This document shows positions 23,777-41,494 of a stretch of DNA of 64,000 nt, one piece after another. A model generated the notes under the pieces. That model worked only from the letters and a program-made list of their open reading frames with translations, ran no database searches and was not told where the DNA came from. This stretch comes from Alphaproteobacteria bacterium. GTDB taxonomy: Bacteria > Pseudomonadota > Alphaproteobacteria > UBA828. The stretch spans positions 224,001-288,000 of the forward strand of contig CBDCQT010000012.1 of assembly GCA_965220745.1 (NCBI GenBank), written 5' to 3'. The stretch's first letter is position 1. Every line of letters begins with the position of its first letter. A program made the position numbers and the translations under genes.

Positions 23777-23914
23777 AGCCGAAGCCGCTCCGGCTGCGCG
23801 TCAGCGCCCAGCGATTGAGGGCAAAAGAGAGGCGGCGCGCACCCTCCCGGGCAGGCGCCGCCCCAGCGTCTGCTCAACCTGCGGAATCCGGCCTAAACCG
23901 TCCCCGCGGCGGAG

Positions 23915-25294: not shown

Positions 25295-25396
25295 CTCCCT
25301 CTCCCTAAGTTCCGCGCTGTGCGCGCTACGATAAACCGCTCAAATTCGGTTCCGGAGTATGGTGAGCGCCCCAAATGGTGTCAAACGACGCTCCGG

Positions 25397-26185: not shown

Positions 26186-26304
26186 GGCGGGGATCCTTTC
26201 GGGCACGCGCGGCGGGGGCGGCAGTCTCTTCGCCGTGCCAACAGAGCGCAAGGACGCTTCCGAGTAACGCTGAAATGCGGGGCCGGCGATGCGGTGTGCC
26301 GGCA

Positions 26305-26333
26305 TTGACAGCCCAAAGGGCGATCCGCATGTT
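26305..26333 (+). promoter_or_regulatory. Putative sigma70 promoter of the dikinase-like/carboxylase operon
   Basis: TTGACA-N17-CATGTT about 40 bp upstream of GTG 26372. Confidence 0.5.
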
Positions 26334-26371
26334 GGCGCCTCCGTTCCGGCGAGCCTGCCCTGGGGGAGAGA

Positions 26372-27124
26372 GTGGCCAAGCTTTACGTGGACACGGACAA
26401 GTACGGCGACCAGGCACACTCGCCCACCGTCGAGGCCTTCCACAGCGCGATAAAAGACCTAGTAAGGCGCCGCCTCGACGAGAGCGGGGTCGACTGGAAC
26501 AGCTTCGTCTTCGACAAGTCCTACGATCTCATCACCGCGGCCGACTTCGAGGAGATCGAGAGGAAGCTGCTCGACGCCGGGCACCGCTACGACTTCTCCG
26601 CCGTAATCTCGGTGAACGAACGGCCCGAGGCCTACAAGCCGGCCGAAGGCATCCTGGGCGACGACCCTGACTGGACCATGGAGCATCCGGACGCGCCCTC
26701 CGCCGAAGCCGATGCGGAGGGCCGCGCCCTCTGCGGCGTCGGCGACAACGTGATGCGCGTCTCCGAGAATACCGTGGGCACCGCGCGCTACGTCCGTTCC
26801 AGCAGCCAGGTCATGCACTACCTCGGAGACGGCGTACCGCCGGAGACCATCGCCATCATCGATGACTCTGGTGGCACACTGACGGCGCCAATCCTGGAGC
26901 AATTCACCGGCATCATCTGCATGGGCGGCACGGTGCGCTCCCACCTCGGCATTCTATCGCGGGAATACGGTATTCCCTGCTTCATGAATGCCAAGATTAC
27001 TGGGATCAAGGAAGGCCAGCGGGTGGAGATGGAAACGGCCGCGGCGGCCAAGACGGCTGAAGCCTACCAGAAGGGCGAGGAGATGACCGCCAACATCTGG
27101 AAGCTGGCACAGGAGGCTTCGTGA
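26372..27124 (+). CDS. Stand-alone PEP-utilizer mobile (phospho-His swivel) domain protein with an unknown N-terminal domain
   Basis: C-terminal half has LTAPILEQFTGIICMGGTVRSHLGILSREYGIPC and IKEGQRVEM. No ATP-grasp or TIM barrel. Confidence 0.85.
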   Translation: MAKLYVDTDKYGDQAHSPTVEAFHSAIKDLVRRRLDESGVDWNSFVFDKSYDLITAADFEEIERKLLDAGHRYDFSAVISVNERPEAYKPAEGILGDDPDWTMEHPDAPSAEADAEGRALCGVGDNVMRVSENTVGTARYVRSSSQVMHYLGDGVPPETIAIIDDSGGTLTAPILEQFTGIICMGGTVRSHLGILSREYGIPCFMNAKITGIKEGQRVEMETAAAAKTAEAYQKGEEMTANIWKLAQEAS

Positions 27125-28677
27125 TGGTCGGCGCACCTCGCCTCTCCTACGCCCAGCTGCTGGAAACCAACAACCTTCTGCAGACCTTCACCGACGAGAC
27201 CTACTGGCTCTGCGTCACGCGCACCGTGCAGGAATCGAAGCTCTTCCCGGTGCCGCCCTACATGCTGCTCTCCTACCTCAACGCCTTCTATCGCTATCCC
27301 TCGCTCTTGCGGAAGGTGGAGAGCGTGATGACGGCGGAAGAGATCGGCGACCGCGCCCGAGCAGGGCGCCCGCCCGGCAAGAGCGCCATGGGCTGGGGGA
27401 TGCCGGGCTTCTACTTGCTCGGCCGCGAGTGGCTCATCAACATGGGTCTGCTGCGGCCGCAGGACGCTGCCGAGGATGTTGTCTACCTGATGGACTTCTG
27501 GAAGCGCCTGCAGCTCTCCTGGCACCGCAACGACGGGCACATCACCAACAAGGAATTCGGCCACCGCTGTCAGATCCTGCCCGAGCGGCGGCTTCAGGTC
27601 TTCGAGTCCGACGCCTACGGCTGCGAGGCCGGCGATCCGCTGCACAGCGCGGCGACGCAGTTCATGGCTTCTGCGGCGCAATACGGATTTCTCGTGAGCT
27701 GCGAGAGCCGCATCAGCCTGCTCAATACCGGGCCCTACAAGCTGGCCGACGGCAACGAGATGATCGTCCGCGAATTCATGGACCTCGGCGAAGGCGACTT
27801 TCCCTGGCTCGACGACGTGGCGGCCGATATCCCCTACAACAATCTCACCGTCCCGATGCTGGTGAAGGACTGCCACTTCTACTTGGTCGACGACTGGGGA
27901 AGCTTCGAATCCGAGCCCGAGTTCCGGGCCGAAAACATCGTCGGCGTCGGCCTCTACACCTCCGACCCGCTCACCGACGGGCACATTCCGGTGGGAATGG
28001 AGAGTCGTGAGACCCTGACCGAGACCTTCCGCACGCTGGACGGGCTCTTCAAGGAGGCGACGGCGCGGCTCTGGAAGCGCATCGCGGGCTGGAGCCGCGA
28101 CCAGATGCTCGACGCGGGCGCGCTCACCTATTTCGGCATCTGCAAGGACCTCGCCCACGTCGCGGGCGTCTACGCCCAAGAGGACTGGATGCTGATCGAC
28201 GAACGGGCCGAGCGCTTCCGCCCCCTGCTCAACGACGAGTTTAGCCGCGATTGCCTGGGCGAATTGGTCGGGCTGCTGACGCTGCCGAGCCATCGCCTCT
28301 CCTCCTACAGCATGATGCAGCACGGCAACGGCCCGACCGGCATGTACACACCGATCCCCTACGCGGTCCTGGACGGCGAGGATTACGTGCCCACCTGCGG
28401 CCCGGTCTATCCTGGCGCCACCACGTTGCCGGCCAAGGCCGACCGCTACCGCACCAGCCAGGGCGTGCTGACGTTGGAGGACTATAACCATCGGGTCCGT
28501 GACTTCACGCCGCAGTCCGACCGGTATCGTTTCCTGGACGAGACCTGGCTCAAGTACAACCACGACACAGCGCGTGCCGACGAGATGTACCGGCACGAGC
28601 AGGTACGGGCGCGCAAGATCCAAGGTCGCGGGGCGTCGCTCGGCGCTGCGGAGCTGGCGGCGCTCCCCCGCGACTAG
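27121..28677 (+). CDS. Hypothetical protein, 518 aa, translationally coupled to the phospho-His protein
   Basis: Long ORF with strong GC3 bias, globular composition, GTGA overlap. No family recognised. Confidence 0.85.
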   Translation: MMVGAPRLSYAQLLETNNLLQTFTDETYWLCVTRTVQESKLFPVPPYMLLSYLNAFYRYPSLLRKVESVMTAEEIGDRARAGRPPGKSAMGWGMPGFYLLGREWLINMGLLRPQDAAEDVVYLMDFWKRLQLSWHRNDGHITNKEFGHRCQILPERRLQVFESDAYGCEAGDPLHSAATQFMASAAQYGFLVSCESRISLLNTGPYKLADGNEMIVREFMDLGEGDFPWLDDVAADIPYNNLTVPMLVKDCHFYLVDDWGSFESEPEFRAENIVGVGLYTSDPLTDGHIPVGMESRETLTETFRTLDGLFKEATARLWKRIAGWSRDQMLDAGALTYFGICKDLAHVAGVYAQEDWMLIDERAERFRPLLNDEFSRDCLGELVGLLTLPSHRLSSYSMMQHGNGPTGMYTPIPYAVLDGEDYVPTCGPVYPGATTLPAKADRYRTSQGVLTLEDYNHRVRDFTPQSDRYRFLDETWLKYNHDTARADEMYRHEQVRARKIQGRGASLGAAELAALPRD

Positions 28678-28718: not shown

Positions 28719-30212
28719 ATGCAGATCGGTGAGTACATCCGGCGCGCTGGCGCCATGTACGGCGAGGCGCTGGCGCTGACCGAAGGCGCACGCACGCTGA
28801 GCTTCCGCGAGTTCGATGCGGCGACGGATCGGCTCGGCAACGCGCTGCTGGCGCAGGGCTTCGAGCCGGGCGACCGCGTCGGCGTGCTGCTGCCCAACGG
28901 GATCGATTGTCTGATCGCTTACTACGCGCTCGCCAAGTGCGGCCTCGTGCGGGTCTCGCTCAACGTCCGCGAGACAGCGTCGGACCACCGCTACAAGCTC
29001 GGCGACAGCGGCGCGCGCGGCCTCATCCACGACGATGTCGACGATGCCGAGGGCTTCGGCGCGCCGATGGTCTATGGCCGCGAGGCGCTGCGCCGCCTCA
29101 TCGACGACGGAGCGTCCGGCGCCTGCCGAGTGGACCGCGACCTTGAGGCCCCCTTTCGCCTGGGCTTTACCGGCGGAACCACCGGCGCGCCCAAGGCGGT
29201 CACGCTGACCACGCTGGGCGAGACCGCGGAACTCGCGGCCTTTCTCATGGACCTGGTGCCTGATCTCGCACCGGGCGACCGCTTCCTCCACGCCGCTCCC
29301 ATCGCGCACGCGTCAGGCGCTTTCTTCCTGCCCTCCCTGGTGCGGGGTGTGCACCAGCTGATCATGCCGCACTTCGACGCCGCCGGCCTCATCACGATGG
29401 CGGCGAAGGCGCGCGCGACCCACACGTTTCTGGTGCCGACCATGCTGGCCATGATCATGGAGGAGCCCGCGCTGGAGACCGCCGACCTCGGCTTCAAGCG
29501 CATCTGCTACGGCGCCTCGCCGATCGCGCCGAGCCTCTTGGAGCGTGCCATGGCCCGCTTCGGCCCGGTCTTCGCACAGACCTACGGTCAGGCGGAATCC
29601 CCCATGGTGATCACCTTCCTCCGGCCGGAAGACCACGACCGCGTGGGCTCGTGCGGGCGGCCCTATACCACCGTCGACGTGGCAATCTTCGACGATGACG
29701 ACAGGCCGGTGCCCGCCGGCGAGCAGGGCGAGATCGTCTGCCGCGGCACCCAGCTCATGGCCCGTTACTGGAACCGCCCGGAAGAGACCGCCAAGGCTTT
29801 CCACAACGGTTGGCTCCATACCGGCGACATCGGTCGCATGGACGAGGACGGCTTCGTCTACATTCTCGACCGCAAGAACGACATGCTCATCAGCGGCGGC
29901 TACAATGTCTATCCCCGCGAGATCGAGGATGTGCTGCTGGCCCACGAAGGCGTCGTCGAGGCTGCGGTCGTGGGCTTGCCGGACGAAAAATGGGGCGACC
30001 GCGTCCACGCCGTGGTCGCTGGACGGCCCGGCCTGGACCCGGAGACGGTGCGGCAGTTCTGCCGCGAGAGACTCGCCGGCTACAAGTGCCCGAAGAGCGT
30101 CGAGATCTGGGACGCGCTGCCCAAGAGCGGGGCCGGCAAGCTCCTGCGCCGCGCGGTGCGCGACCGCGTTATCGCCTCCGCCGACGCAACGCCTGAGCGG
30201 CAGAGTGCCTGA
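28719..30212 (+). CDS. AMP-forming acyl-CoA synthetase
   Basis: FTGGTTGAPK, YGQAE, WLHTGD, DRKNDMLISGG, PKSGAGK. Confidence 0.93.
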   Translation: MQIGEYIRRAGAMYGEALALTEGARTLSFREFDAATDRLGNALLAQGFEPGDRVGVLLPNGIDCLIAYYALAKCGLVRVSLNVRETASDHRYKLGDSGARGLIHDDVDDAEGFGAPMVYGREALRRLIDDGASGACRVDRDLEAPFRLGFTGGTTGAPKAVTLTTLGETAELAAFLMDLVPDLAPGDRFLHAAPIAHASGAFFLPSLVRGVHQLIMPHFDAAGLITMAAKARATHTFLVPTMLAMIMEEPALETADLGFKRICYGASPIAPSLLERAMARFGPVFAQTYGQAESPMVITFLRPEDHDRVGSCGRPYTTVDVAIFDDDDRPVPAGEQGEIVCRGTQLMARYWNRPEETAKAFHNGWLHTGDIGRMDEDGFVYILDRKNDMLISGGYNVYPREIEDVLLAHEGVVEAAVVGLPDEKWGDRVHAVVAGRPGLDPETVRQFCRERLAGYKCPKSVEIWDALPKSGAGKLLRRAVRDRVIASADATPERQSA

Positions 30213-30215
30213 GCA

Positions 30216-30818
30216 ATGACCGACGCCTATCTCGTCCTGCACGGCCTCGCGATCAAGAAGCACGCGGATGCTGGTGCGGTCGCCGCCGCGCTTGGACTCG
30301 CCGAAGACGAGGTGCGCGCCATGCTGGAGGATGCAGTGACGAAGGGCCGTGCAGCGTGCGCAGGCGGGGCATATTCGCTCACACCCGTCGCCCGTGTGGC
30401 GCTCGACGGGGCCTATTCCAGGCTGTTCGCCGCGCAACGGACCAATGCAGCCTTCGCCGCTGCCCACGAGCGCTTCGAGGCGATCAATCGAGAGCTCAAG
30501 GCACTGATGACCGCGTGGCAGACCATCGAAATCGATGGCGAGAGCGTGCTAAACGATCACAGCAACAAGGACTACGACGACCGCCTGATCGACCGCCTCG
30601 GGGCCCTGCACGAGCGGGCCGAGGCGATCCTCCGGCAGCTCGCCGCCGGCCTGCCGCGCCTCGCGATCTACGCGCGCAAGCTGGAAGCCGCGCTGGAAAA
30701 GGCCGAGGACGGTGCCATCGAGTGGGTCAGCGGCGCGAAGATCGAGTCCTATCACACAGTGTGGTTCGAGCTTCACGAGGACCTGCTGCGGATCCTCGGC
30801 CGCACGCGGCAGGAATAG
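30216..30818 (+). CDS. Hypothetical protein with wHTH-like N-terminus (resembles mycobacterial Rv1126c-type partner of short PPDK)
   Basis: C-terminal SYHTVWFELHEDLL motif; stop 2 bp before the PPDK-like start. Confidence 0.75.
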   Translation: MTDAYLVLHGLAIKKHADAGAVAAALGLAEDEVRAMLEDAVTKGRAACAGGAYSLTPVARVALDGAYSRLFAAQRTNAAFAAAHERFEAINRELKALMTAWQTIEIDGESVLNDHSNKDYDDRLIDRLGALHERAEAILRQLAAGLPRLAIYARKLEAALEKAEDGAIEWVSGAKIESYHTVWFELHEDLLRILGRTRQE

Positions 30819-30820: not shown

Positions 30821-32581
30821 ATGGGTGCGTTTGACTGCTGGGTCCTCCCCCTCGATCGCGCCGCGCTGCCCGACCGCGCGCTCATCGGCGGCAAGGCATG
30901 GGGCATCGCCGTCATGCGCCACGCGGGCCTGCCGGTGCCGCCCGCCTTCGTCGTGACGACAGAGGCCTGCCGCGCCTATCTCGCGGAAGGCGCGCTGCCG
31001 GAGGGTCTCCTCGACGAGCTGCACGCCGGCATCACCATGCTTGAGACCGAGACCGGGCGTCGCTTCGGCGTGCCCGAGCGCCCGCTGCTGCTGGCCGTTC
31101 GCTCCGGCGCCGCCGTCAGCATGCCGGGCATGCTGGACACGGTGCTCAACCTGGGAATGAGCGAAGAGATCGAGGCGGCTCTAGCGCGGGAAAGCGGCGA
31201 CGCCGCCTTTGCCCGTGACACGCATCGGCGCTTCCACGAGATGTACGAGCGCACCGTGCTCAAGGCGGGGATCGACGGGCTCGCGCCCGAAGGATCCGTC
31301 GAAAATTGGCGCGCCGCCGTGGCGGCGGCTGGGGCCACGGGCAACGTGCCAACGGACCCGCGCGATCAGCTTTTAGGCGCGGTCAGCGCCGTCTTCGACT
31401 CCTGGAACGGCCGGCGCGCGCGGCGCTATCGCAAGCATCACGGGCTGTCCGACGACGCGGGCACTGCCGTCACAGTTCAGGCCATGGTGTTCGGCAACCT
31501 CGGCGAGAACAGCGGGACCGGCGTCCTCTTCAGCCGCAATCCACTCAGCGGGGCGCCCGAGCCATACGGCGAATACCTTGCCCGTGCCCAGGGCGAGGAC
31601 GTGGTCTCCGGCCAGCGGACGCCACAGGGACTGGATGCGCTGGCGTCGTCCCTGCCAGACGCGCACGCCGCCCTGATCGACGCCGCGCGCAAGCTCGAAA
31701 CCCTGAACCGGGATGTGCAGGACATCGAATTCTCGGTACAAGATGGCACGCTCTACCTGCTACAGACTCGCACCGCCGCGCGGGCCCCCGCCGCGGCCGT
31801 CCGCATCGCGGTCGATCTGGTGAACGAGGGAACCATTTCCACCGACGAGGCTCTCGCCCGCGTTAGTGCGAACCAGGTCCGCGCGCTGCTCATGCCGCGC
31901 CTTGCTGATGGCGCCGCCGAGACCGCCCCTCTTCTCGCGGAGGGAGAGGGCGCGAGCCCCGGCGTCGGCATTGGCGCGGCCGTGCTGGACGCCGATGCGG
32001 CCGAAGCCCGTGGTGCGGCTGGCGAGGACGTGGTGCTGGTGCGCCCGACCACCAGCCCGGAGGACGTGCACGGCATGGTCGCCGCCCGCGCCGTCGTGAC
32101 GGCGACCGGTGGTGCGACCTCTCACGCCGCCGTGGTCAGTCGCTCCCTCGGCGTCCCCTGCGTCGTCGGCTGCGGCGAAGGCGTGGGCGCAGCGCTCGCG
32201 GGCAGGGAAGTGACGGTGGACGGCAAGGCGGGACGGGTGTTCGACGGCGCATTGCCAGTGAGCGCACCCGCGGAGACGGACGATCCGCTCCTGTGCCGGA
32301 TCGCGGACTGGGCTCGCGCGGCCACGCCGCTCGCGGTCTACCGTGCAGATGAGGCAGCGCCCAGCGACGCGCTCGAACTCGACCGCCTGCCGGGCGGCGA
32401 AGACCCCGAGAGGTTGCCGGGACTGTTGCGGGGGGTATCGGCTGCCAGCGGCGGCGCACTCGCCAGCGATGCGGGCGTCGCGGCCGCCGTCGCCGCCGGC
32501 CTCGACTTCATCGTCGTCCGCCACGCCCTGCCGGCACTGCTCGCGGCCTGTGGCGCTGCGCGCGCGGAGCCGCCCGCATGA
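30821..32581 (+). CDS. Short pyruvate phosphate dikinase-like protein (ATP-grasp plus phospho-His domains, no pyruvate-binding barrel), 586 aa
   Basis: GGKA, RSGAAVSMPGMLDTVLNLG, VQAMVFGN, SGTGVLFSRNP, QGEDVVSG, QDIEF, LLQTR, TSPEDVHGM, GGATSHAAVVSR. Only about 120 aa follow the His domain. Confidence 0.9.
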   Translation: MGAFDCWVLPLDRAALPDRALIGGKAWGIAVMRHAGLPVPPAFVVTTEACRAYLAEGALPEGLLDELHAGITMLETETGRRFGVPERPLLLAVRSGAAVSMPGMLDTVLNLGMSEEIEAALARESGDAAFARDTHRRFHEMYERTVLKAGIDGLAPEGSVENWRAAVAAAGATGNVPTDPRDQLLGAVSAVFDSWNGRRARRYRKHHGLSDDAGTAVTVQAMVFGNLGENSGTGVLFSRNPLSGAPEPYGEYLARAQGEDVVSGQRTPQGLDALASSLPDAHAALIDAARKLETLNRDVQDIEFSVQDGTLYLLQTRTAARAPAAAVRIAVDLVNEGTISTDEALARVSANQVRALLMPRLADGAAETAPLLAEGEGASPGVGIGAAVLDADAAEARGAAGEDVVLVRPTTSPEDVHGMVAARAVVTATGGATSHAAVVSRSLGVPCVVGCGEGVGAALAGREVTVDGKAGRVFDGALPVSAPAETDDPLLCRIADWARAATPLAVYRADEAAPSDALELDRLPGGEDPERLPGLLRGVSAASGGALASDAGVAAAVAAGLDFIVVRHALPALLAACGAARAEPPA

Positions 32582-33069
32582 GCATCGACCGCAAGGAGGT
32601 CGAGGCGCTGATCCGCCTCTTCGAGCGCTCGGACTGGCACGAGCTCCGGCTCGAGACCGACGGCTTGAAGCTGGTGCTGTCGAAGGACGCTGATGCGGCC
32701 CCGATCGACTTGGCGGCGGAGGCTGCAGGAGCTTCGGCGGAGCAAGCCCAGCCGGACCCGGGACTCGACGCAACGACCGACGGGTACGACCCAATGCCGG
32801 CCGACGGGCTGGTGCCGATCACCGCGCCTAATCTCGGCACCTTCTATCGCGCACCCAAGCCGGGAGTCGCGCCCTACGTGGAGGTCGGCCAGCAGATCGG
32901 CGAAGCGACCGAAGTGTGCCTGATCGAGGTGATGAAGCTGTTCACGCCGGTGCGGGCCGGGATCAGCGGCCGCATCGCCAAAGCCTGCGTCGAGGACGGT
33001 GAGATGGTGGAGTTCGGCGTGCCGCTGTTTCTGGTCGAGCCGGAGGCAGAGACGGCCGAGCCTGCGTGA
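32578..33069 (+). CDS. Biotin carboxyl carrier protein
   Basis: APNLGTFYRAP, IEVMKLF (biotinylated Lys), VEFGVPLF. Confidence 0.92.
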   Translation: MSIDRKEVEALIRLFERSDWHELRLETDGLKLVLSKDADAAPIDLAAEAAGASAEQAQPDPGLDATTDGYDPMPADGLVPITAPNLGTFYRAPKPGVAPYVEVGQQIGEATEVCLIEVMKLFTPVRAGISGRIAKACVEDGEMVEFGVPLFLVEPEAETAEPA

Positions 33070-34427
33070 TGGCCCTCTCGCGGGTCTTCGTCGCCAACAG
33101 GGGCGAGATCGCCGTGCGCATCGTTCGCGCCTGCCGCGCGCTCGGGCTTGAGAGCGTCGTCGGCGTCTCCGACGCGGACCGCGAGAGCCTGGCGGCGGAG
33201 CTCGCGGACCGAGCGGTCGTGCTGGGTCCGGCGCCGGCGCGGGACAGCTATCTCAATGCCAATTTGGTGGTGCACGCGGCGAAGGCGACCGGGTGCGACG
33301 CATTGCATCCGGGCTACGGCTTCCTCTCCGAATCGGCGGCGCTTGCCGGGCTGAGCGAGCGGGAGGAGATCGCGTTCGTCGGACCGCGGGCCGAGACCAT
33401 CGAGCGGCTCGGCGACAAGCTCGCCGCCCGCGCTATCGCGGCCGAGGCGGGCGTTCCCATCGTCCCCGGTTCGGGTGAAATCCGCTCGGCGGCAGACGCC
33501 AGCAGGTTCGCCGCCTCCGCAGGCTATCCGGTGCTGTTGAAGGCGAGTGCCGGCGGCGGCGGGCGGGGCATGTTCGTTGCGCGAACGGACGCAGACATCA
33601 ACGACGGCTTCGAGCGCGCATCTGCGGAGGCCGAGGCTGCCTTCGGCGATGGGGCGCTCTTCGTCGAGCGCTTCGTCGAGGACGCGCGCCATGTCGAGGT
33701 GCAGATCATGGGGGACGGCGCCGGCGCAGTCGTCCACTTCGGCGAGCGCGACTGCTCGGTGCAGCGCCGCTTTCAGAAAATGGTGGAGGAAGCGCCGGCG
33801 GCGGCGCTGCCGGCCGAGGCGCGCGCGCAGATTCACGATGCGGCCTGCCGTCTCGCGCGGCACCTCGATTACCGAAGCGCGGGCACGGTGGAGTTCCTCT
33901 ACGATGTCGCGCGAGAGGAGGCCTATTTCATCGAGGCCAATGTCCGTATTCAGGTGGAGCATCCGGTGACAGAGGAAGTCACCGGCATCGACCTGATCGA
34001 GGAGCAGCTGCGCATCGCAAGCGGCGGCGGGCTCAGCGTCGCGCAAGAGGACATCGCGCTGAGCGGCCACGCCATCGAATGCCGAATCAACGCCGAGGCG
34101 CCGGAGCGGGACTTTGCGCCATCGCCCGGCCTGATCGACGCCTGGTGCCCGCCGAAGGGCCAGGGCATCCGCATCGACAGCCATTGCCGCGCGGGCGCCT
34201 TCGTGCCCCCCTTCTACGACAGCATGATCGCCAAGCTGATCGTGCGCGCCGACGATCGCGCCGAGGCGGTGATCCGCATGGGCGGTGCGTTGGAGAAGTT
34301 TCGGATCGACGGGATCGACACGAACCTTGCCTTCCAGGCGCGCCTGGTGCGGCACCCCGACTTCACGGCCAACAGACTCAACACACGCTGGCTGGAGGAT
34401 GTCTTCATGCCCTCGCTGGCGTCCTGA
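33066..34427 (+). CDS. Biotin carboxylase subunit
   Basis: ANRGEIAVR, HPGYGFLSE, GGGGRGM, RDCSVQRR, RIQVEHPVTE, YDSMIAK. Confidence 0.95.
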   Translation: MMALSRVFVANRGEIAVRIVRACRALGLESVVGVSDADRESLAAELADRAVVLGPAPARDSYLNANLVVHAAKATGCDALHPGYGFLSESAALAGLSEREEIAFVGPRAETIERLGDKLAARAIAAEAGVPIVPGSGEIRSAADASRFAASAGYPVLLKASAGGGGRGMFVARTDADINDGFERASAEAEAAFGDGALFVERFVEDARHVEVQIMGDGAGAVVHFGERDCSVQRRFQKMVEEAPAAALPAEARAQIHDAACRLARHLDYRSAGTVEFLYDVAREEAYFIEANVRIQVEHPVTEEVTGIDLIEEQLRIASGGGLSVAQEDIALSGHAIECRINAEAPERDFAPSPGLIDAWCPPKGQGIRIDSHCRAGAFVPPFYDSMIAKLIVRADDRAEAVIRMGGALEKFRIDGIDTNLAFQARLVRHPDFTANRLNTRWLEDVFMPSLAS

Positions 34428-34438: not shown

Positions 34439-35899
34439 ATGGCGCACATCGAGTTCCTCGACGAGACCATGCGCGACGGGCAGCAGAGCCTGTGGGGCAT
34501 GCGCATGCAGGCCGGCATGGCGCTCCCCATTGCCCCGGTGATCGACCGCGTGGGCTACCGCGTAGTGGACCTCACCGGATCGAGCCTCTTCGAGGTGCTG
34601 ATCCGCCACTGCCGCGAGAACCCGTGGGAGGGGCTCGACCTCTTGGTCGACGCCATGCCCAACAGCACGATCCGGGGCGGCATGCGCAGCAACGCGAGCG
34701 TCACCTTCGGCGTCACGCCCGATGCGTTGATGGACGTCTGGATGCGGCAGCTCTGCGTGCACGGCTGCCGCAGCTTCTGGATTTACGACGTGCTCTTCAA
34801 CATCGACAAGACGCACCGCCTCGCCAGTGTGGCCAAGGAGTTCGGCGCGGAGGTGACAGGCGCCATCATGTTCACGCTGAGCCCTGTGCATACCGACGAC
34901 TACTACGCCGATAAGGTAGACAAGCTCTCGGCCTCGCCGGATATCGACACCATCCTGCTTTACGACACTGGCGGCGTGCTGGAGCCTGACCGCATGCGCA
35001 CGCTGGTGCCGGCGATCATGGCGAAGGCGCGCGGCAAGCCCATCGAGTTCCACTCGAATAACCTCCTGGGTGCCTCCGGCCGCGCCTACGTGGAGGCGAT
35101 CGAGCTCGGCATCCGCATCCTGCACACCGCGTGCGGGCCGATGGCGAACGGGCCCTCGGTGCCCTCGGTCGAGGTGATGACGCGGAACGTCGAGCATCTC
35201 GGCCACACCCACAACATCGACCGCGCGCTGCTGCCCGAGATCGCCGAGCACTTCGAGCGCGTTGCCGCGGCGGCCGGCTTCCCGGTCGGCGTGCCGCAGG
35301 AATACGACCTTTTTTCGGTGCGACATCAGGTGCCGGGCGGGATGATGGGCACGCTCAAGGCGCAGCTCGTCCAGCACGAGATGGCGGACCGGCTCGACGA
35401 CGTGCTGGAGGAGACCGGCCGCGTGCGCCGCGAGCTCGGCTACCCCGGTATGGCGACGCCCTTCTCCCAGCTCGTCGGCACCCTCGCTGTGCTCAACATC
35501 GTCAGCGGCGAGCGCTACGCCGTGATTCCCGACGAGGTGATCCAGTATGCCGGCGGGCACTACGGCGAGCCGGTAGCGCCCATCGACGAAGACGTGCTGG
35601 ACCGGATCATGGCCGCTCCGCGGGCGCGCGAGGTGCTGGCCGAGCCGCCGGAGCAGCCCACGCTCGCCGAGCTGCGCAAGCGCCACGGCACCGACGATGA
35701 CGACGAGCTGATCCTGCGCGCCTTGGTCCCGGCGGCGGATCTGGAGAGGATGCGGGCCGCTGGCCCGGTGAAGCGGGACTTCCCGATTCTGTCCACGCCG
35801 GAGCTCGAGCACGTGCGCAAACTCATGGCGCTGTCGACCTCGAAGTATGTCGAGGTGCAGACCGCGAAGCTCTCGGTCTCGCTGCGACGGGCGGGCTGA
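34439..35899 (+). CDS. Pyruvate carboxylase subunit B / oxaloacetate decarboxylase alpha-like carboxyltransferase (divergent)
   Basis: DETMRDGQQSLW, HQVPGGMMGTL, GYPGMATPFSQLVG. KDxxG replaced by YDTGG and HxH by HSN. Confidence 0.88.
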   Translation: MAHIEFLDETMRDGQQSLWGMRMQAGMALPIAPVIDRVGYRVVDLTGSSLFEVLIRHCRENPWEGLDLLVDAMPNSTIRGGMRSNASVTFGVTPDALMDVWMRQLCVHGCRSFWIYDVLFNIDKTHRLASVAKEFGAEVTGAIMFTLSPVHTDDYYADKVDKLSASPDIDTILLYDTGGVLEPDRMRTLVPAIMAKARGKPIEFHSNNLLGASGRAYVEAIELGIRILHTACGPMANGPSVPSVEVMTRNVEHLGHTHNIDRALLPEIAEHFERVAAAAGFPVGVPQEYDLFSVRHQVPGGMMGTLKAQLVQHEMADRLDDVLEETGRVRRELGYPGMATPFSQLVGTLAVLNIVSGERYAVIPDEVIQYAGGHYGEPVAPIDEDVLDRIMAAPRAREVLAEPPEQPTLAELRKRHGTDDDDELILRALVPAADLERMRAAGPVKRDFPILSTPELEHVRKLMALSTSKYVEVQTAKLSVSLRRAG

Positions 35900-35900: not shown

Positions 35901-37070
35901 GTGCGCCGCGCCCTTGTCGTCGATGTCGTCCGCACCCCCTTCGCCAAGGGGCGCGAAGGGGGCGCGCTGAGCGCGGTTCACCCGGTGGACCTGCTCGCGA
36001 AGACGCTTGAGGGCCTGGTGACGCGCACGGGCATCGACCCCGGCGCGGTCGACGACGTGATTGCGGGTTGCGTCATTCAGGTCGGCGAGCAGGCCGCCAA
36101 CGTCGGCCGCCAGGCCTGGCTCGCCGCGGGCTTCCCCGAGGGTGTTCCCGCCGTCACCATCGACCGGAAGTGCGGCTCGGCCCAGCAGGCCATGGACTTT
36201 GCGGCCCAGGGCGTGATAGCGGGCGCCTACGATCTCGCCGTTGCCTGCGGGGTCGAGATGATGAGTCGCGTGCCGATGGGCAGCAACCGGCGGGGCAAGG
36301 ATCATCTGGGGCCGATGCTGCGCCGGCGCTACGCCGACGGCCTGGTGCACCAGGGCATCTCCGCCGAGCTGATTGCTGCCCACTGGGAACTCGCGCGGAA
36401 GGACCTCGATGCCTACGCGCTCCGCTCGCACCGGCACGCGGCGGCGGCCGAGGATCGCGGGCTGTTCGCCCGCGATATCGTGCCCATCGACGGGACCTCG
36501 ACGGACGAGGGCATCCGCCGCAACACGAGCGCCGAGAGGCTTGCCGCGCTGGAGCCCGCGTTCACAGACGTCAGCACGGGTGTGCGCTTTCCTGAGATCG
36601 GCTGGGTGGTGACGGCGGGGAATTCGAGCCAGGTCTCCGACGGCGCATCGGCGATGTTGATCGCATCGGAAGCGGCGACTGAGCGGCTGGACCTGACGCC
36701 GCGCGCGGCCATCACCCACTTCGCGGTCTGCGGCGACGACCCCGTGCTCATGCTGACCGGGATCATCCCGGCGACGGAAAAGCTGCTGGCGCGGAGCGGC
36801 CGGACCCTCGACGATATCGACTGCTTCGAGGTCAACGAGGCCTTCGCCTCCGTCGTCCTGGCCTGGGCAGAGGCGTTGGGGGCGGACCTCGACCGCGTTA
36901 ACGTCAATGGCGGCGCCATCGCCCTCGGTCATCCCGTCGGCGCCTCCGGCGGCCGGCTCACGGCGAACCTGATCGGCAGCTTGGAGGAAAGCGGCGGCCG
37001 GCTCGGCCTTCAGACCATGTGCGAGAGCGGCGGCATGGCAAACGCGACGCTGATCGAGCGGCTGGGCTGA
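35901..37070 (+). CDS. Thiolase (acetyl-CoA C-acyltransferase)
   Basis: DRKCGSAQQA, NEAFA, GHPVGASG, TMCESGG. GTG start at 35901. Confidence 0.94.
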   Translation: MRRALVVDVVRTPFAKGREGGALSAVHPVDLLAKTLEGLVTRTGIDPGAVDDVIAGCVIQVGEQAANVGRQAWLAAGFPEGVPAVTIDRKCGSAQQAMDFAAQGVIAGAYDLAVACGVEMMSRVPMGSNRRGKDHLGPMLRRRYADGLVHQGISAELIAAHWELARKDLDAYALRSHRHAAAAEDRGLFARDIVPIDGTSTDEGIRRNTSAERLAALEPAFTDVSTGVRFPEIGWVVTAGNSSQVSDGASAMLIASEAATERLDLTPRAAITHFAVCGDDPVLMLTGIIPATEKLLARSGRTLDDIDCFEVNEAFASVVLAWAEALGADLDRVNVNGGAIALGHPVGASGGRLTANLIGSLEESGGRLGLQTMCESGGMANATLIERLG

Positions 37071-37076: not shown

Positions 37077-37817
37077 CTACGCCGCTAGGTAGTGACCGCC
37101 GTTGACGAAGATGGTCTGTCCCTGGACGAACGCGGCCTCCGGGCGCGCGAGGAAGCGAATCACGCTGGTGTAGTCCTCGTCCTGCACGCCGCGCCCGCTC
37201 GGGTTGGTCTCGGCGGCGTGCTTCACGATCTCGTCCGCCCGATCGCCGAACAGCGCCCGCACCGCATCGGTATGGACCACGCCCGGCGCGACGCAGTTGA
37301 TGCGGATGCCGCGCGGCGCGAGCTCGCTTGCGAGATAGCGCACCAGCGATTCCGCGAGTGCTTTGGCGACGCCGATGGCGGCGTAGTTGGGCACCACGGT
37401 GCGTCCGCCCCGGCTTGTGAGGAAGAAAACGGTGCTGCCGCGCACGAGCAGCGGATCGGCCGCCTGCACGAGGTAGAGCAGCGCCGTGCCGTTGAGGTTG
37501 ACGGCGGCGGTGAAGTCGTCCGCGTCGCAGTCGAGCGCGGGCTTGGGAATGGCCCGGACGGCGCAGTGCACGAGCTGATCCAGTCGCTCGACTCGTTCCG
37601 CGACGTGCGCCAGCACGCTCCGCGCGCCCTCCGGCGTCCCGACATCCTGCTTGATCAGATGACAGCGCGCGCCCGCCGATTCGACCAGGGACCGGGCCTC
37701 GCCCGCCGCATCGTCGTCGCCCGCATAGTTGAGAAACACGTCCACGCCCGGTTCGGCGAAGGCGAGCGCAATGGCGCGCCCGATGCCCTTGGTCCCGCCG
37801 GTAATCAGGATCGACAT
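37077..37817 (-). CDS. SDR oxidoreductase, enoyl-thioester reductase (FabL-like) type
   Basis: TGGTKGIG and YAAIGVAK (YxxxxxxK). Start MSILIT at 37817. Confidence 0.85.
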   Translation of the reverse strand: MSILITGGTKGIGRAIALAFAEPGVDVFLNYAGDDDAAGEARSLVESAGARCHLIKQDVGTPEGARSVLAHVAERVERLDQLVHCAVRAIPKPALDCDADDFTAAVNLNGTALLYLVQAADPLLVRGSTVFFLTSRGGRTVVPNYAAIGVAKALAESLVRYLASELAPRGIRINCVAPGVVHTDAVRALFGDRADEIVKHAAETNPSGRGVQDEDYTSVIRFLARPEAAFVQGQTIFVNGGHYLAA

Positions 37818-38033
37818 GACGCCCTCGCTCCACGCTGCACCTTCGGACAAGCCGTCCATAAGTGCTTGATGCTACCACGCAATAGTATCGACTGCGCTGC
37901 TTGACGGAGGCCCTTCCGTCGATAGACTTCCGCCCTCTCGGCGAGTCGCTCAAGACCATCCCGCTGGTGGCGCCCGGCACACTGATCGGGCGCGGCGTGC
38001 GCTGGCGCTGGACCGCGTGAGGGGATTCGACAC

Positions 38034-38894
38034 ATGACCGTGAACACCATCGGCGTGGTCGGCGCCGGCATGATGGGCTCGGAGATCGCGCTGGTTATGG
38101 CGCTTGCAGGCAAGACAGTGCTGTTGAATGACCGCGACCGGGCGCTCCTCGACAAAGCCGTGGCCAAGCTCGATGGCGTGCTCGACAAGGGCATCGCCCG
38201 CGGCTTCTACAGCGAAGACGACAAGGCCAGGGCACAGGACAACATGCGCACGGCCCTCGACCTCGGCGACTTCGCACCTTGCGACATGGTGATCGAGGCG
38301 GTGTTCGAGGACGAGGAGGTGAAGGCTGGCGTCTATCGGGTGCTCGGCGAGATTCTGGCCCCCGACTGCCCGATCGCGAGCAACACGTCGAGCATCTCGA
38401 TCAGCGTGCTCGCCTCCTACCTGGAGGAGGCGCGGCGGCCCTTCTTCCTCGGCACCCATTTCTTCTCGCCGGTCTCGCGCATGAAGCTGGTCGAGGTGAT
38501 TCCGGGGCTGGAGACGGCGGACGAGACCGTTGCCGCCGTGATTGCCGTCTGCGAGGAGGCGGGCAAGACGCCGGTGCCGATCAAGGATGTCGTCGGCTTC
38601 GCGGTCAATCGGCTGATCCACATCTTCTGGATCGAGGCGATTCGCTTGGTGGAGGAAGGGGTGGCGACGCCGGAAGATATCGATACCGCCTGCAAGCTCG
38701 GCATGGGGCTCCCGGTCGGACCCTTTCGGCTTATGGATGCAGTGACCAACAACCTCAGCCTCGACGTGCAGGAGATCCTGCACGAGGCCTACGGGCCGCG
38801 CTTCATGCCCCGCCCCCTGCTGAAGCAAATGGTAAAGGCGGGCTACAATGGGCGGAGCGCGGGCAAGGGCTGGTATCGCTACGACGAGAGCTGA
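38034..38894 (+). CDS. 3-hydroxyacyl-CoA (3-hydroxybutyryl-CoA-type) dehydrogenase
   Basis: VVGAGMMG, IEAVFE, ASNTSSI, GTHFFSP, GFAVNR, PVGPF. Confidence 0.93.
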   Translation: MTVNTIGVVGAGMMGSEIALVMALAGKTVLLNDRDRALLDKAVAKLDGVLDKGIARGFYSEDDKARAQDNMRTALDLGDFAPCDMVIEAVFEDEEVKAGVYRVLGEILAPDCPIASNTSSISISVLASYLEEARRPFFLGTHFFSPVSRMKLVEVIPGLETADETVAAVIAVCEEAGKTPVPIKDVVGFAVNRLIHIFWIEAIRLVEEGVATPEDIDTACKLGMGLPVGPFRLMDAVTNNLSLDVQEILHEAYGPRFMPRPLLKQMVKAGYNGRSAGKGWYRYDES

Positions 38895-38938: not shown

Positions 38939-39970
38939 ATGGAAGCAGCGGTGTTCAAGGGCGTCGGCAATCCGCTATCGATCGAGCAGGTGGATGAGCC
39001 GTCCGTCCGCCCCGGCGACCTCCTGATCAAGGTCGAGTTCTGCGGCATCTGCGGCTCCGACCTGCACGCGACCGAGGCGGGCGCGCTGGTGGTGCCGGAC
39101 GGCCAAATCCTGGGCCATGAGTTTACCGGAACCGTCGTGGAGACGGGTGCAGAAGTGGGCGGGGACTGGAAGGTCGGCGACCACGTGACAGCCGTGCCGG
39201 TCAACGCCTGTGCGGAGTGCGGGCGCCAGTGCAAGCTCGGCATGGGCATCCACTGCCCCAACAACATCATCACCGGCTTCGGTGCGCCGGGGGCTTATGC
39301 CGAGTACATCCGCGTCGATGCCGGCAACGCGCTCAGGCTGCCGCAGGGCCTCGGCTTCCGCGAGGGTGCGACGGCGGAGCCGCTCTCGGTCGGCCATCAC
39401 GTGATCGACAAGGCAGGCATGCGGCCCGGCACCAACGTACTGGTGATCGGCGCGGGGCCTATCGGGCTCTCGTGCACGACCTTCGCGCGCTTTTCCGGCG
39501 CCCGCCACGTCGTGGTGAGCGAGTTCGCCGCGCACCGCCGCGAGCGCGCGCTCGCGATGGGCGCGACCGCGGTCATCGATCCCAACGCGGGCGATGTGGC
39601 CGAGCAGTATGCGGCAATCGCCGGCGGTCCGCCCGACCTGGTAATCGAATGCGTCGGCGTTCCCGGCATGCTCGGGCTCTGCATCGACCTGGTGAAACAC
39701 CAGGGCAAGGTCATGGTCTGCGGCGTCTGCACCAACGAGGAGAGCTTCATCCCGCTCGCCGCGCTGGCGAAGGAGGTGTGCCTACAGTGGGCGCTCGGCT
39801 ACAAGCCGCGGGATTTCGAGGTGGTGCTCGATCTGCTCGCGAACGGGCGGATCGACCCGGCGCCGCTTATTACCCACGTGATCGGCTTCGACGATCTCGC
39901 CGCGCGCTTCGAGAAGCTCAGGACGCCGACCGACGAGTGCAAGGTGCTTCTGCGCCCCCAGCGGGACTGA
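38939..39970 (+). CDS. Zn-dependent alcohol dehydrogenase (MDR family)
   Basis: GICGSDLH, GHEF, Cys cluster CAECGRQC...C, GAGPIG. ATG at 38939 after a GGAG-rich RBS. Confidence 0.92.
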   Translation: MEAAVFKGVGNPLSIEQVDEPSVRPGDLLIKVEFCGICGSDLHATEAGALVVPDGQILGHEFTGTVVETGAEVGGDWKVGDHVTAVPVNACAECGRQCKLGMGIHCPNNIITGFGAPGAYAEYIRVDAGNALRLPQGLGFREGATAEPLSVGHHVIDKAGMRPGTNVLVIGAGPIGLSCTTFARFSGARHVVVSEFAAHRRERALAMGATAVIDPNAGDVAEQYAAIAGGPPDLVIECVGVPGMLGLCIDLVKHQGKVMVCGVCTNEESFIPLAALAKEVCLQWALGYKPRDFEVVLDLLANGRIDPAPLITHVIGFDDLAARFEKLRTPTDECKVLLRPQRD

Positions 39971-39983: not shown

Positions 39984-40769
39984 ATGACCGGACGGGTTGA
40001 CGGCAAGATCGCGCTGATCTCGGGCGCCGGCACGGGCGTCGGGCGCGCCTGCATGATTCTGTTCGCCTGCGAGGGCGCCAGGGTCGTCGGCTGCTCGCGC
40101 ACCCAGGCGAACCTGGACGAGACGCTGCGGCTCACGAAGGAAGCGGGCGGCGACGGCTTCGTGGTCGCGCACGATCTGGCGCAACCCGAAGGCGCCGAAG
40201 CGCTGATCCAGGCCTCCATGGATATATACGGGCGCATCGACATCCTCGTGAACTGCGCGAGCGTCGGCTACAGCTGGCTGGAGAAGAGCCCGGACTCCAT
40301 GGGCGACGTGGTCAACACCACGCCCGAGAAGTGGCAGGAGGTGATGGGGATCAACCTCGATTCCTACTTCTATCTCTGCCGCGGCGTGATCCCCATCATG
40401 CAGAAGCAGGGCGGGGGCGCGATCGTCAACGTGGCCAGCATCTCGGGCTTCCAGGGCCTCCCCGTCGCGCACACCTACACGGCGGCGAAAGGGGCGGCGA
40501 TCAACCTGACGCGCTCGCTCTGCGTGACCTATGCCAAGGACAATATCCGCGCGAACTGCGTCGCACCGGGCTTCACCGACACGCCGATGGTGGCGCCCGT
40601 CCTCAATCTCTTCGACGATCCGGATATGGCGGACCGCCTCACGCCGATGCTGCGCCCCGGCACGCCTGAGGAGATGGCCTACGGCTGCCTCTATCTCGGC
40701 TCCGACGAAGCGACCTACTGCAACGGCACCGTGCTTACCATAGACGGCGGCACCACGGCACGACAATAG
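39984..40769 (+). CDS. SDR family NAD(P)-dependent oxidoreductase
   Basis: SGAGTGVG, VNVASI, YTAAK, VAPGFTDT. Confidence 0.92.
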   Translation: MTGRVDGKIALISGAGTGVGRACMILFACEGARVVGCSRTQANLDETLRLTKEAGGDGFVVAHDLAQPEGAEALIQASMDIYGRIDILVNCASVGYSWLEKSPDSMGDVVNTTPEKWQEVMGINLDSYFYLCRGVIPIMQKQGGGAIVNVASISGFQGLPVAHTYTAAKGAAINLTRSLCVTYAKDNIRANCVAPGFTDTPMVAPVLNLFDDPDMADRLTPMLRPGTPEEMAYGCLYLGSDEATYCNGTVLTIDGGTTARQ

Positions 40770-41477: not shown

Positions 41478-41494
41478 TGAGAAATGCGGGTTAG
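41478..41494 (+). mobile_element. Isolated IS1380-family-like right end
   Basis: TGAGAAATGCGGG-TTAG reading VRNAG*, the style of terminus I recall for IS1380-family elements. No transposase nearby. Confidence 0.4.

Follow-up and report, generated by a model that had tools for sequence, protein, structure and literature searches.

In the Hpe, Acv and MarK pathways, a kinase phosphorylates the phenolic hydroxyl group of 4-hydroxyacetophenone or acetovanillone (PMC9618137; bioRxiv 10.1101/2022.04.28.489975; PMC12624787). As described in PMC9618137, a three-subunit biotin carboxylase with a PycB-like carboxyltransferase (CT) subsequently carboxylates the acetyl group, and a phosphatase of the HAD type then strips the phosphate; in Rhodococcus rhodochrous GD02, these functions are provided by the HpeHI kinase, the HpeCBA carboxylase and the HpeD phosphatase, and HpeCBA is reported there to carboxylate 4-phospho-acetophenone or 4-phospho-acetovanillone only and never the free ketone. 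AcvABCDEF of Sphingobium SYK-6 constitutes a similar pathway (bioRxiv 10.1101/2022.04.28.489975), and MarK is the kinase of the same hydroxyacetophenone pathway (PMC12624787). XccABC of Aromatoleum aromaticum EbN1 is a homologous system. To our knowledge, the coupling of biotin-dependent ketone carboxylation to phosphorylation was first recognized in 2022, and lignin-derived hydroxyacetophenones are the only substrates for which it has been described. Here, we analyzed a stretch of 64,000 nucleotides from an alphaproteobacterium (contig CBDCQT010000012.1; from here on, the window), in which the gene at 34439-35899(+) encodes a CT with a remodeled metal site. On balance, we favor a reading in which this protein serves as CT in a new lineage of three-subunit biotin-dependent ketone carboxylases that would act on a substrate phosphorylated beforehand and whose product would be dephosphorylated, CoA-activated and thiolyzed. 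By sequence, this lineage is related to the Hpe/Acv/Xcc phospho-hydroxyphenylethanone carboxylases.

The CT gene starts with an ATG 11 nt past the stop codon of the biotin carboxylase (BC) gene, behind a purine-rich ribosome-binding site of the GGGGAG type, and translates into a protein of 486 aa. Its GC contents of 0.69, 0.43 and 0.92 at codon positions 1, 2 and 3, in surrounding DNA of ~67% GC, are typical of a real gene. The protein has the two-domain architecture of the PycB/OadA/5S type, in which an HMGL-like TIM barrel (PF00682; 24.3 bits, slightly below the 29-bit cut-off) is followed by the Pfam PYC_OADA "conserved carboxylase" domain (PF02436; 2e-27, 96.7 bits against a 27-bit cut-off). 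Using phmmer against solved structures, CT aligned end to end over ~390-430 residues with three solved CTs, i.e., OadA (2nx9, E of 6e-60), PycB (5ks8, 2e-58) and transcarboxylase 5S (1rqb, 2e-47). Based on these sequence comparisons, CT is a carboxyl-transfer subunit with the PycB/OadA/5S-type fold. The curated NCBIfam cut-offs were all missed: the best hit, PRK09282 (pyruvate carboxylase subunit B), scored 312.2 bits against a cut-off of 402, and the scores were 272.1 against 756.5 bits for oadA, 190.3 against 827 bits for 5S and 142.5 against 965 bits for PC. The C-terminus lacks a Biotin_lipoyl domain, biotin carboxyl carrier protein (BCCP) being encoded by a separate gene, and the scanned neighbors of CT include no OadB or OadG membrane partner.

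In a word-indexed search, we obtained 3252 relatives of CT at E ≤ 1e-10 among 7999 scored candidates. The best 120 of these relatives are all ≥71% identical to CT; those with a database name are annotated as "pyruvate carboxylase", "hypothetical" or "oxaloacetate decarboxylase alpha subunit". Identity was ~30% to plasmid-borne oadA genes (tblastn on a plasmid collection) and 39-41% to the CTs of Hpe-/MarK-type clusters. The names "oxaloacetate decarboxylase alpha" and "pyruvate carboxylase" are probably wrong for the genes of this module, as is "pyruvate, phosphate dikinase", which concerns a neighboring gene described below.

The first-pass annotation of this DNA, made from the letters alone, had reported that the RDGQQS motif of CT is kept but that KDxxG reads YDTGG and HxH reads HSN, and alignment with 2nx9, 5ks8 and 1rqb bore this out. 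The motifs are located at residues 12-17 (RDGQQS), 175-179 (YDTGG) and 205-208 (HSNN). In the phmmer alignments, "RDgqqs" of CT is matched by "RDahqs" and "RDghqs"; "illYDtggvl" is aligned on "ialKDmagil", "iaiKDmasll" and "ialKDmaall"; and "iefHsNnllg" is aligned on "lhlHcHstag", "ihlHaHatsg" and "inlHcHsttg". Thus, at the four metal-site positions, CT retains Asp13 and, as the first His of HxH, His205; it has Tyr175 in place of Lys and Asn207 in place of the second His, so that two of the four ligands of the canonical site (Asp, carbamylated Lys and the two His of HxH) are replaced. We take the metal ligands of 5S to be Asp23, carbamyl-Lys184, His215 and His217, corresponding to the four aligned positions; a residue count on the 1rqb alignment, with an 11-residue tag allowed for, agrees with this assumed numbering. 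Arg12, Asp13, Gln16 and the PGG motif are retained across a 97-row alignment of CTs, except for two rows with Trp at the Lys position, in which Arg12 and Asp13 are replaced. Members of the clade with Tyr at the Lys position also differ from the Lys-type rows at positions 20, 25, 65, 67, 120 and 304-305; at 304-305, they have Gly-Thr and the canonical rows Ser/Thr-Asn, although one Hpe-type row also has Gly-Thr. Position 304 is presumably that of the catalytic Thr of pyruvate carboxylase.

The altered site is conserved. The residues Asp-Tyr-Asp-His-Asn at positions 13, 175, 176, 205 and 207 were present in all 120 of the best 120 homologues (of 3252) and in 73 of the 81 CT rows that came from retrieved loci. 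Among the remaining eight rows, three combine Tyr with an intact HxH (loci L050, L052 and L068, all from Burkholderiales), two lack the N-terminus, two (L003 and L004) have the canonical Lys and HxH, and one, from Rhodococcus (L002), has Glu and HFH, as read in ungapped alignments. Both synonymous codons are in use for each replaced ligand: across 78 loci, with one row out of register, Tyr175 is encoded by TAC in 53 and by TAT in 24, and Asn207 by AAC in 60 and by AAT in 14. Moreover, 137 positions are ≥98% conserved among 194 members of the clade. The conserved pattern together with the use of both synonymous codons argues that the remodeled site is kept by selection, and from these sequences it represents a conserved alteration rather than decay. 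Decay of this copy, which the first-pass annotation had named as grounds for abandoning its reading, is thus excluded by substitutions that are shared so widely.

On the plus strand, a compact series of genes extends from PEPut through a thiolase gene, with CT in eighth place. To determine how widely this series occurs, we used a scan of 185,579 species genomes, which yielded 79 loci reaching ±10 kb. Synteny was called using tblastn at ≥40% identity and ≥50% coverage, thresholds that divergent genes may escape, and presence was counted in the 48 loci with ≥8.5 kb of DNA upstream of CT, in which open reading frame (ORF) calls are heuristic. The genes of the module and its immediate neighbors are as follows, with short-chain dehydrogenase/reductase abbreviated SDR and pyruvate phosphate dikinase PPDK:

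25397..26443, minus strand: SurE-family phosphatase (longest ORF), divergent from the module; within 10 kb in 16/48 loci
26372..27124, plus strand: PEPut, 250 aa, with a C-terminal PEP-utilizers mobile His domain (GGTVRSH) and an unassigned N-terminal part; 32/48 loci
27121..28677, plus strand: hyp518, 518 aa, no family match, confident fold model; 34/48 loci
28719..30212, plus strand: AMP-forming acyl-CoA ligase of the FadD/medium-chain type, 497 aa; 32/48 loci
30216..30818, plus strand: hyp200, 200 aa, no named family; 33/48 loci
30821..32581, plus strand: truncated PPDK of the VadK/PRK05878 type, 586 aa; 36/48 loci
32578..33069, plus strand: BCCP, 163 aa, with the biotinyl-lysine motif EVMKL; 41/48 loci
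33066..34427, plus strand: BC, 453 aa, with CPSase_L_D2, Biotin_carb_N and Biotin_carb_C domains; 40/48 loci
34439..35899, plus strand: CT, 486 aa, HMGL-like barrel and PYC_OADA
35901..37070, plus strand: degradative 3-ketoacyl-CoA thiolase, 389 aa, starting with GTG 2 nt past the CT stop codon; 28/48 loci
37077..37859, minus strand: second SDR, accessory; 13/48 loci
38034..38894, plus strand: 3-hydroxyacyl-CoA dehydrogenase, accessory, in the closest relatives only; 6/48 loci
38939..39970, plus strand: Zn-dependent alcohol dehydrogenase, accessory; 5/48 loci
39984..40769, plus strand: classical SDR oxidoreductase, a frequent neighbor of the module; 27/48 loci

BCCP, BC and CT are thus three separate subunit genes in one operon, and CT is the only CT in the module. 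BC scored 611.9 bits with NCBIfam NF006367, i.e., above the cut-off of 597. The thiolase resembles degradative fatty-acid and steroid thiolases, and the SDR at 39984..40769 is a candidate secondary-alcohol dehydrogenase. In the longest ORF of SurE, ~97 residues precede the domain, which starts at residue 98, and the ORF overlaps the start of PEPut by 72 nt; the true SurE start probably lies further downstream. No ring-cleavage, hydroxybenzoate or vanillate genes were found in the window or among 63 flanking ORFs of eight loci, and Rfam returned no match in the window.

The locus closest to that in the window, at 97% identity, is from a Rhodospirillales metagenome-assembled genome and has the same gene order, from a periplasmic binding protein to the last SDR. 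Other loci are from the Gammaproteobacteria (Nevskiales, Salinisphaerales, Cellvibrionales and Pseudomonadales) and from Sphingomonadales, Rhodobacterales, Hyphomicrobiales and Burkholderiales. All seven genes upstream of CT were present in 23 of the 48 loci, and individual upstream genes in 32-41. The sphingomonad loci contain the module genes in a rearranged order, two Rhodococcus plasmids have them in the same order, and the module is also carried on Novosphingobium plasmids. In the Rhodococcus module, an OB-fold/SCP-x pair is found in place of the thiolase, and an enzyme of the Y_phosphatase3 family (PF13350) is part of the operon in place of SurE. The genes flanking the module in eight loci (the 63 ORFs above) are mostly for GntR/FCD regulators, SDRs, extra ligases, thiolases and SurE.

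We compared the residue at the Lys position with the type of cluster in which each CT is encoded. Using tblastn on the plasmid collection, all seven related CTs from MarK-type, HpeHI-type or kinase-less clusters had Lys and HxH, whereas the three CTs encoded by PPDK-type modules on plasmids, as well as all scanned loci, had Glu or Tyr. The HpeHI type is exemplified by plasmid pRlBT01c of R. leguminosarum, the MarK type by S. yanoikuyae and P. putida plasmids, and kinase-less clusters by Cnuibacter, Caballeronia, Sulfitobacter and Arthrobacter. Hence, among loci with readable context, the loss of Lys is confined to CTs of the PPDK-module clade. Among the kinase-less clusters, that on the Cnuibacter plasmid (L084, 8926-15610) consists of CT, accB, accC, bioY, genes for 3-oxoacid CoA-transferase A/B and thiolase, without a kinase gene; three others (L087, L088 and L089) combine a PycB-like CT with accB and accC, also without a kinase gene, and that of Caballeronia additionally has a carbonic anhydrase gene. 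The CTs of these four clusters have kept Lys and HxH, and the clusters are candidates for biotin-dependent carboxylation of an unphosphorylated ketone. Such a reaction is reported not to be known for acetone.

To trace the order in which the ligands were replaced, we searched representative proteins (3367 at E ≤ 0.001, of which 81 of the best 150 with 430-700 residues were tabulated) and built a 97-row tree from 72 representatives (440-680 aa), 14 scan loci, 10 context-labeled plasmid CTs and the window CT. The tree is a quick IQ-TREE run (LG+G4, no mixture models) with SH-aLRT as the only support measure and with the root placed on a canonical KDM-type row rather than inferred; loci with the same gene content serve as stand-ins for the named HpeA, AcvE and XccA. 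At the Lys position, 49 rows have Lys, 19 Tyr, 13 Glu and 3 Trp. The window CT belongs to a 32-row clade (support 99) in which no row has Lys. The Glu rows, in which HxH is retained, are paraphyletic at the base of this clade, and a Tyr clade of 16 rows (support 97) is nested among them. In the Tyr clade, the basal branch has Tyr and HSH (Burkholderiales), and the crown has Tyr and HxN (14 rows, support 100). The simplest reading of the tree is that Lys may have been replaced by Glu and then by Tyr with HxH intact, after which HxH would have become HxN. The 32-row clade lies inside a 55-row clade (support 97) that also contains the CTs of Hpe-/MarK-type clusters. The latter form a 6-row clade of their own (support 99), and the window CT belongs to a distinct subclade and does not group with them; the tree does not resolve the branching among the subclades of the 55-row clade.

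Two proteins that are sister to the Tyr clade (P0128 and P0136) have Trp in place of Lys, and their Arg12, Asp13 and His205 are also replaced, leaving no canonical ligand; they may be non-catalytic paralogues or enzymes of quite different chemistry. A second, unrelated group of seven rows (P0162, P0167, P0176, P0180, P0195, P0240 and P0256) has lost Lys independently, with Cys, Ala, Leu, Tyr or Ile in its place, together with the first His of HxH. Remodeling of the metal site has thus been recurrent in the CT superfamily.

The kinase gene of the module encodes a truncated PPDK. The protein has the Pfam domains PPDK_N and PEP-utilizers, scored 712.7 bits with NF004531 against a cut-off of 456, and covers approximately residues 19-549 of 874-aa PPDKs (E 1e-115), ending before the PEP/pyruvate barrel. 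Consistent with the truncated-PPDK family, it contains the ATP-grasp and phospho-His domains with an intact TSH motif. The His domain of PEPut aligns with that of an HpeH-like kinase subunit (E 9e-6). For hyp518, we found no match in Pfam, NCBIfam, PDB sequences or Atlas. A near-length search returned 988 relatives, of which the 120 listed include none with a functional name or Pfam domain, those with a name being called "hypothetical protein", and forms longer than 908 aa were not found. An AlphaFold2 model of hyp518 built from 33 orthologues was confident (pLDDT 84.5, pTM 0.86), and Foldseek returned no PDB match to it at E ≤ 0.001 (best E 0.19, TM ≤ 0.14). We considered that hyp518 might be the split-off N-terminal, substrate-binding part of an HpeH-like subunit and rejected this (hhalign probability 0.2%).

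The 200-aa protein hyp200 has no PDB sequence match and belongs to no named family; its Atlas look-alikes are unnamed actinobacterial proteins of ~201 aa, and in its model, long helices follow an N-terminus that resembles a winged helix. Proteins of ~720 aa in which hyp518 and hyp200 are fused occur in two loci (L033:5100-7268 and L042:5804-7972) and in at least four database proteins (P0336, P0343, P0344 and P0377), which argues that the two act as one unit. The model of the L033 fusion (pLDDT 85.4) likewise gave no Foldseek match in PDB at E ≤ 0.001, with weak local winged-helix hits only in the hyp200 part. We regard hyp518 as a candidate substrate-binding/phosphotransfer partner of the dikinase.

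The PPDK-like protein has one characterized relative, VadK (Rv1127c) of Mycobacterium tuberculosis. According to PMC13400623 (2026), VadK autophosphorylates on His422 in an ATP- and Mg-dependent manner and is proposed to be a regulatory histidine kinase that binds methylcitrate-cycle enzymes and tunes flux; it is tightly associated with its operonic partner Rv1126c, with which it co-purifies, and homologues are noted in Rhodococcus. The PPDK-like protein of the window passes the cut-off of the same NCBIfam family (NF004531) and also has a small operonic partner. We take Rv1126c to be a protein of ~200 aa that resembles hyp200. Unlike vadK, the gene in the window is part of a catabolic carboxylase operon together with genes for a second His-domain protein and for hyp518.

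Compared with the Hpe, Acv and Xcc systems, the window has BCCP, BC and a PycB-like CT as separate genes in the same order, linked to ATP-dependent kinase, phosphatase and CoA ligase genes and to a gene for C-C cleavage. The individual partners differ. The kinase is a truncated PPDK together with PEPut, hyp518 and hyp200, and neither the phenylphosphate-synthase-like HpeHI/AcvAB genes nor a MarK (UPF0261) gene is present in the window module; the phosphatase is SurE instead of the HAD enzyme HpeD/AcvF, HAD genes being present in the Hpe-/MarK-type loci L003, L004 and L086; the ligase is FadD-like and not of the acetoacetate-CoA-ligase type of Hpe-type clusters; and C-C cleavage would fall to a thiolase and not to a hydrolase. 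The clade of the window CT is without Lys, and usually without the second His, unlike the CTs of Hpe-/MarK-type clusters. Relative to PycB, OadA and 5S, CT has the same fold, Arg-Asp, Gln, first His and PGG motif; it differs in the Lys-to-Tyr and second His-to-Asn replacements, in Gly-Thr for Ser/Thr-Asn, in the missing biotinyl domain, in scoring under the curated cut-offs and in its operon. We note that the published subunit names disagree: in Table 1 of PMC9618137, HpeA (57.4 kDa, XccA homologue) is BC and HpeB (49.3 kDa, XccC homologue) is CT, whereas bioRxiv 10.1101/2022.04.28.489975 labels XccA/ApkA as CT and XccC/ApkB as BC. The sizes and order in the window (BC of 453 aa, then CT of 486 aa) fit the labels of the preprint.

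According to PMC13677872, acetone and acetophenone carboxylases spend ATP on phosphorylation of the ketone enol and form a beta-keto acid. These hydantoinase-type enzymes are biotin-independent and have no homology to the enzyme in the window. The beta-keto acid that they form is then activated and thiolyzed, an outline resembling that of the pathway we propose here. In full-text literature searches, we found no published account of a PPDK-linked biotin carboxylase module or of this Lys-less CT variant, and the word "dikinase" is absent from the text, figures aside, of one supplement to PMC9618137.

Our direct observations concern homology, synteny, the conserved residue pattern and the domains of the partner proteins; from them, we infer a substrate class, an order of reactions, a phosphotransfer route and a metal status. 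An SDR or alcohol dehydrogenase would oxidize a secondary alcohol to the ketone. The truncated PPDK would autophosphorylate its own His from ATP, and the phosphoryl group would be passed to a substrate held by hyp518/hyp200, possibly via the His domain of PEPut. BC would carboxylate the biotin on BCCP, and CT would move the CO2 to the carbon adjoining the carbonyl of the phosphorylated ketone. SurE would then strip the phosphate, the AMP-forming ligase would yield a beta-ketoacyl-CoA, and the thiolase would release acetyl-CoA. In CT, the canonical site would have been rebuilt by the change of Lys to Glu to Tyr and of the second His to Asn, with Asp13, His205, Arg12 and Gln16 kept; the phosphate of the substrate, perhaps with Mg2+ on Asp13/His205, may partly stand in for the transition metal that is tightly bound in the canonical site.

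A phosphorylated ketone as substrate is suggested by the Hpe precedent and by the fact that Lys loss and the PPDK-type module coincide. The first-pass annotation had proposed that the acceptor is not pyruvate, and this is well supported, albeit indirectly, by the missed NCBIfam cut-offs, the absent biotinyl domain, the operon shared with a CoA ligase and a degradative thiolase, and the placement in one 55-row clade with Hpe-/MarK-type CTs. Its further suggestion that the substrate arrives pre-activated is plausible given the HpeCBA precedent (PMC9618137) and the confinement of Lys loss to the PPDK-module clade. The presence of two unrelated phosphatases (SurE, and Y_phosphatase3 in Rhodococcus) suggests that the phosphate survives carboxylation, as in Hpe. 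The FadD-like ligase, the degradative-type thiolase and the absence of aromatic genes from the regions searched point weakly to aliphatic or bulky methyl ketones in preference to hydroxyacetophenones. Acetone was also considered as a substrate; the FadD-like ligase and the degradative thiolase weigh weakly against it.

Several observations weigh against this pathway. In every member, the module is known from its genes alone. VadK, the only characterized relative of the truncated PPDK, is proposed in PMC13400623 to be regulatory and not a small-molecule kinase. Because hyp518 is not homologous to the part of an HpeH-like protein that binds the substrate (the comparison above), its position and its fusion to hyp200 are what point to its role. 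A kinase combined with a biotin carboxylase is dearer in ATP than the known acetone/acetophenone carboxylases. The Rhodococcus module keeps HxH together with Glu, and the metal site may thus well persist in part of the clade. Gene content also varies among the 48 loci: SurE lies within 10 kb in only 16; at the thresholds used, five loci have no more than a single upstream gene out of seven (in L062-L065 just the ligase, in L066 just PEPut); L067, L069, L071 and L083 have BCCP and/or BC (L083 also the ligase) and no kinase gene; and L018, L025, L060 and L075 have PPDK, BCCP and BC without hyp518, hyp200 and PEPut. The genes missing from these loci may lie elsewhere in the respective genomes.

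A different role for the phosphotransfer proteins is the main rival, although we regard it as unlikely. PPDK-like, PEPut, hyp518 and hyp200 might form a regulatory phospho-relay as proposed for VadK, with CT acting on an unphosphorylated ketone or keto acid and the changed CT site reflecting only a different acceptor. As described in PMC13400623, the His autophosphorylation and flux tuning of VadK, a member of the same NCBIfam family as the window protein, fit such a relay, as does the co-purification of Rv1126c with VadK, which recalls the hyp200-PPDK gene pair. Moreover, the existence of CT clusters without a kinase, such as that of Cnuibacter, implies that carboxylation of ketones or keto acids in the CT superfamily does not always require a kinase. 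However, four co-transcribed, translationally coupled genes in a catabolic operon, present in 32-36 of the 48 loci, are many for a regulator; two unrelated phosphatase families in the module fit a phosphorylated metabolite; the loss of Lys coincides with the PPDK-type module in the readable loci; and a dikinase-type enzyme, that of Hpe, does phosphorylate a metabolite (PMC9618137). It is also conceivable, if somewhat more doubtful, that the module performs Hpe chemistry with a third kind of kinase, a phenolic acetophenone being phosphorylated on its ring hydroxyl and the metal-site change being incidental. The general scheme of a kinase, BCCP-BC-CT, a phosphatase, a CoA ligase and C-C cleavage is shared with Hpe, the tyrosine-phosphatase-family enzyme of Rhodococcus (PF13350) would suit an aryl phosphate and is accompanied by the OB-fold/SCP-x thiolase pair, and dikinases that make aryl phosphates are already described (phenylphosphate synthase, HpeHI and AcvAB). 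Against this stand the lack of ring-cleavage, hydroxybenzoate and vanillate genes in the window and the 63 flanking ORFs of eight loci, a ligase that is FadD-like and not of the acetoacetate-CoA-ligase type, and a thiolase of the degradative fatty-acid/steroid kind. Furthermore, all examined Hpe-/MarK-type CTs retain the canonical site, and a remote phosphate alone therefore does not explain the loss of the metal site.

We consider it highly improbable that CT is a conventional pyruvate carboxylase, oxaloacetate decarboxylase or transcarboxylase subunit in which variant ligands are simply tolerated. The database names, PRK09282 as the best NCBIfam hit and the conservation of Arg12, Asp13, Gln16 and the PGG motif in the alignment would agree with it, but all curated cut-offs were missed by a wide margin, two of four metal ligands are replaced, a biotinyl domain and a nearby OadB/OadG gene are lacking, the operon is shared with a CoA ligase and a thiolase, and identity to plasmid-borne oadA genes is only ~30%. 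There is equally little to recommend a decaying or catalytically dead paralogue, e.g., a scaffold. Loss of canonical ligands is what decay is expected to produce, and the neighboring P0128 and P0136 are also without Arg12, Asp13 and His205; nevertheless, the ORF is intact with a GC content of 0.92 at third codon positions, CT is the only CT in the module, neither an elevated dN/dS nor frequent frameshifts in orthologues were seen, and the 137 highly conserved positions as well as the residue pattern, which is identical in all of the best 120 homologues and in 73 of the 81 locus rows while synonymous codons turn over, all speak against it.

A more specific and tentative version of the phosphorylated-ketone pathway, to which we give a minor share of our confidence, is that the PPDK-derived module makes the enol phosphate of a plain ketone, as PPDK does with pyruvate, and that CT carboxylates this enol phosphate. 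In that case, Tyr175, Asn207, His205 and Arg12, with a loose Mg2+ on Asp13, would bind the phosphate and thereby replace the carbonyl-polarizing metal, and the product would either lose its phosphate on carboxylation or leave as a 3-phospho-enoate for hydrolysis by SurE. The PPDK ancestry and the loss of carbonyl-polarizing ligands only in this clade speak for an enol phosphate. The energetic redundancy of an enol phosphate and carboxybiotin speaks against it, as does the recruitment of two unrelated phosphatases, which could nonetheless be compatible with an enol phosphate if the product leaves as the 3-phospho-enoate. If this version is correct, CT would be the first biotin enzyme that carboxylates an enol phosphate, the module would provide a biotin-dependent route to the carboxylation of methyl ketones of the aliphatic kind, and hyp518 would represent a new fold, namely that of a phosphotransfer domain that binds ketones.

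If the phosphorylated-ketone pathway holds, the module would be a second and much more widespread version of phosphorylation-coupled biotin-dependent ketone carboxylation, present in marine, freshwater and soil Proteobacteria and on plasmids, and set apart by the truncated-PPDK kinase, the two proteins without a family and a CT metal site that was apparently rebuilt stepwise. Its function, once worked out, would cover about a thousand "hypothetical" proteins and would show which chemistry needs the Lys-carbamate metal site and what can replace it. For the truncated dikinases of the VadK family, the module could also point to a role in metabolism instead of regulation, and it may reveal an oxygenase-free assimilation of common ketones or secondary alcohols.

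The first-pass annotation had also linked CT to dikinase-like and acetoacetate decarboxylase (ADC)-like genes. The former link stood, with a PPDK-like gene in 36 of the 48 loci, and the latter found no support. Of the 83 related loci, which reach only ±10 kb, a single one (L058) contained an ADC homologue, located at its outermost edge. In the window, the ADC genes lie 14-15.6 kb upstream of CT, behind an ABC-transporter operon, and we rejected ADC as a member of the module. These are two tandem genes of the acetoacetate-decarboxylase family (PF06314) at 18780-19592(-) and 19593-20474(-), adjoining the branched-chain-type ABC transporter operon at 20402-25339. A single ADC-like gene lies 5 kb from the kinase-less CT cluster on Caballeronia pNK84.

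The catabolic region is flanked by genes for TrwC-type relaxase/helicase proteins at 6922-11079(-) (1385 aa) and 47126-50506(+) (1126 aa), and a gene for an IS3-family transposase is located just downstream of the module at 43088-43906(-). The relaxase and transposase genes place the module in conjugative-element or plasmid-like DNA, in agreement with its carriage on plasmids of Rhodococcus and Novosphingobium. A 450-aa ORF at 41491-42843(-), located between the catabolic genes and the transposase gene, has a weak match to JetD_C (Wadjet; 5.9e-07) and an atypically low GC content at third codon positions (0.67). Further downstream, a separate catabolic-looking cluster at 52898-61483, in DNA of lower GC content (0.59-0.60), contains genes for an SDR, a PhyH-family dioxygenase, a sugar-type ABC transporter, an IclR regulator, an Ldh_2 dehydrogenase, an SMP-30 lactonase and an HpcH/HpaI aldolase.

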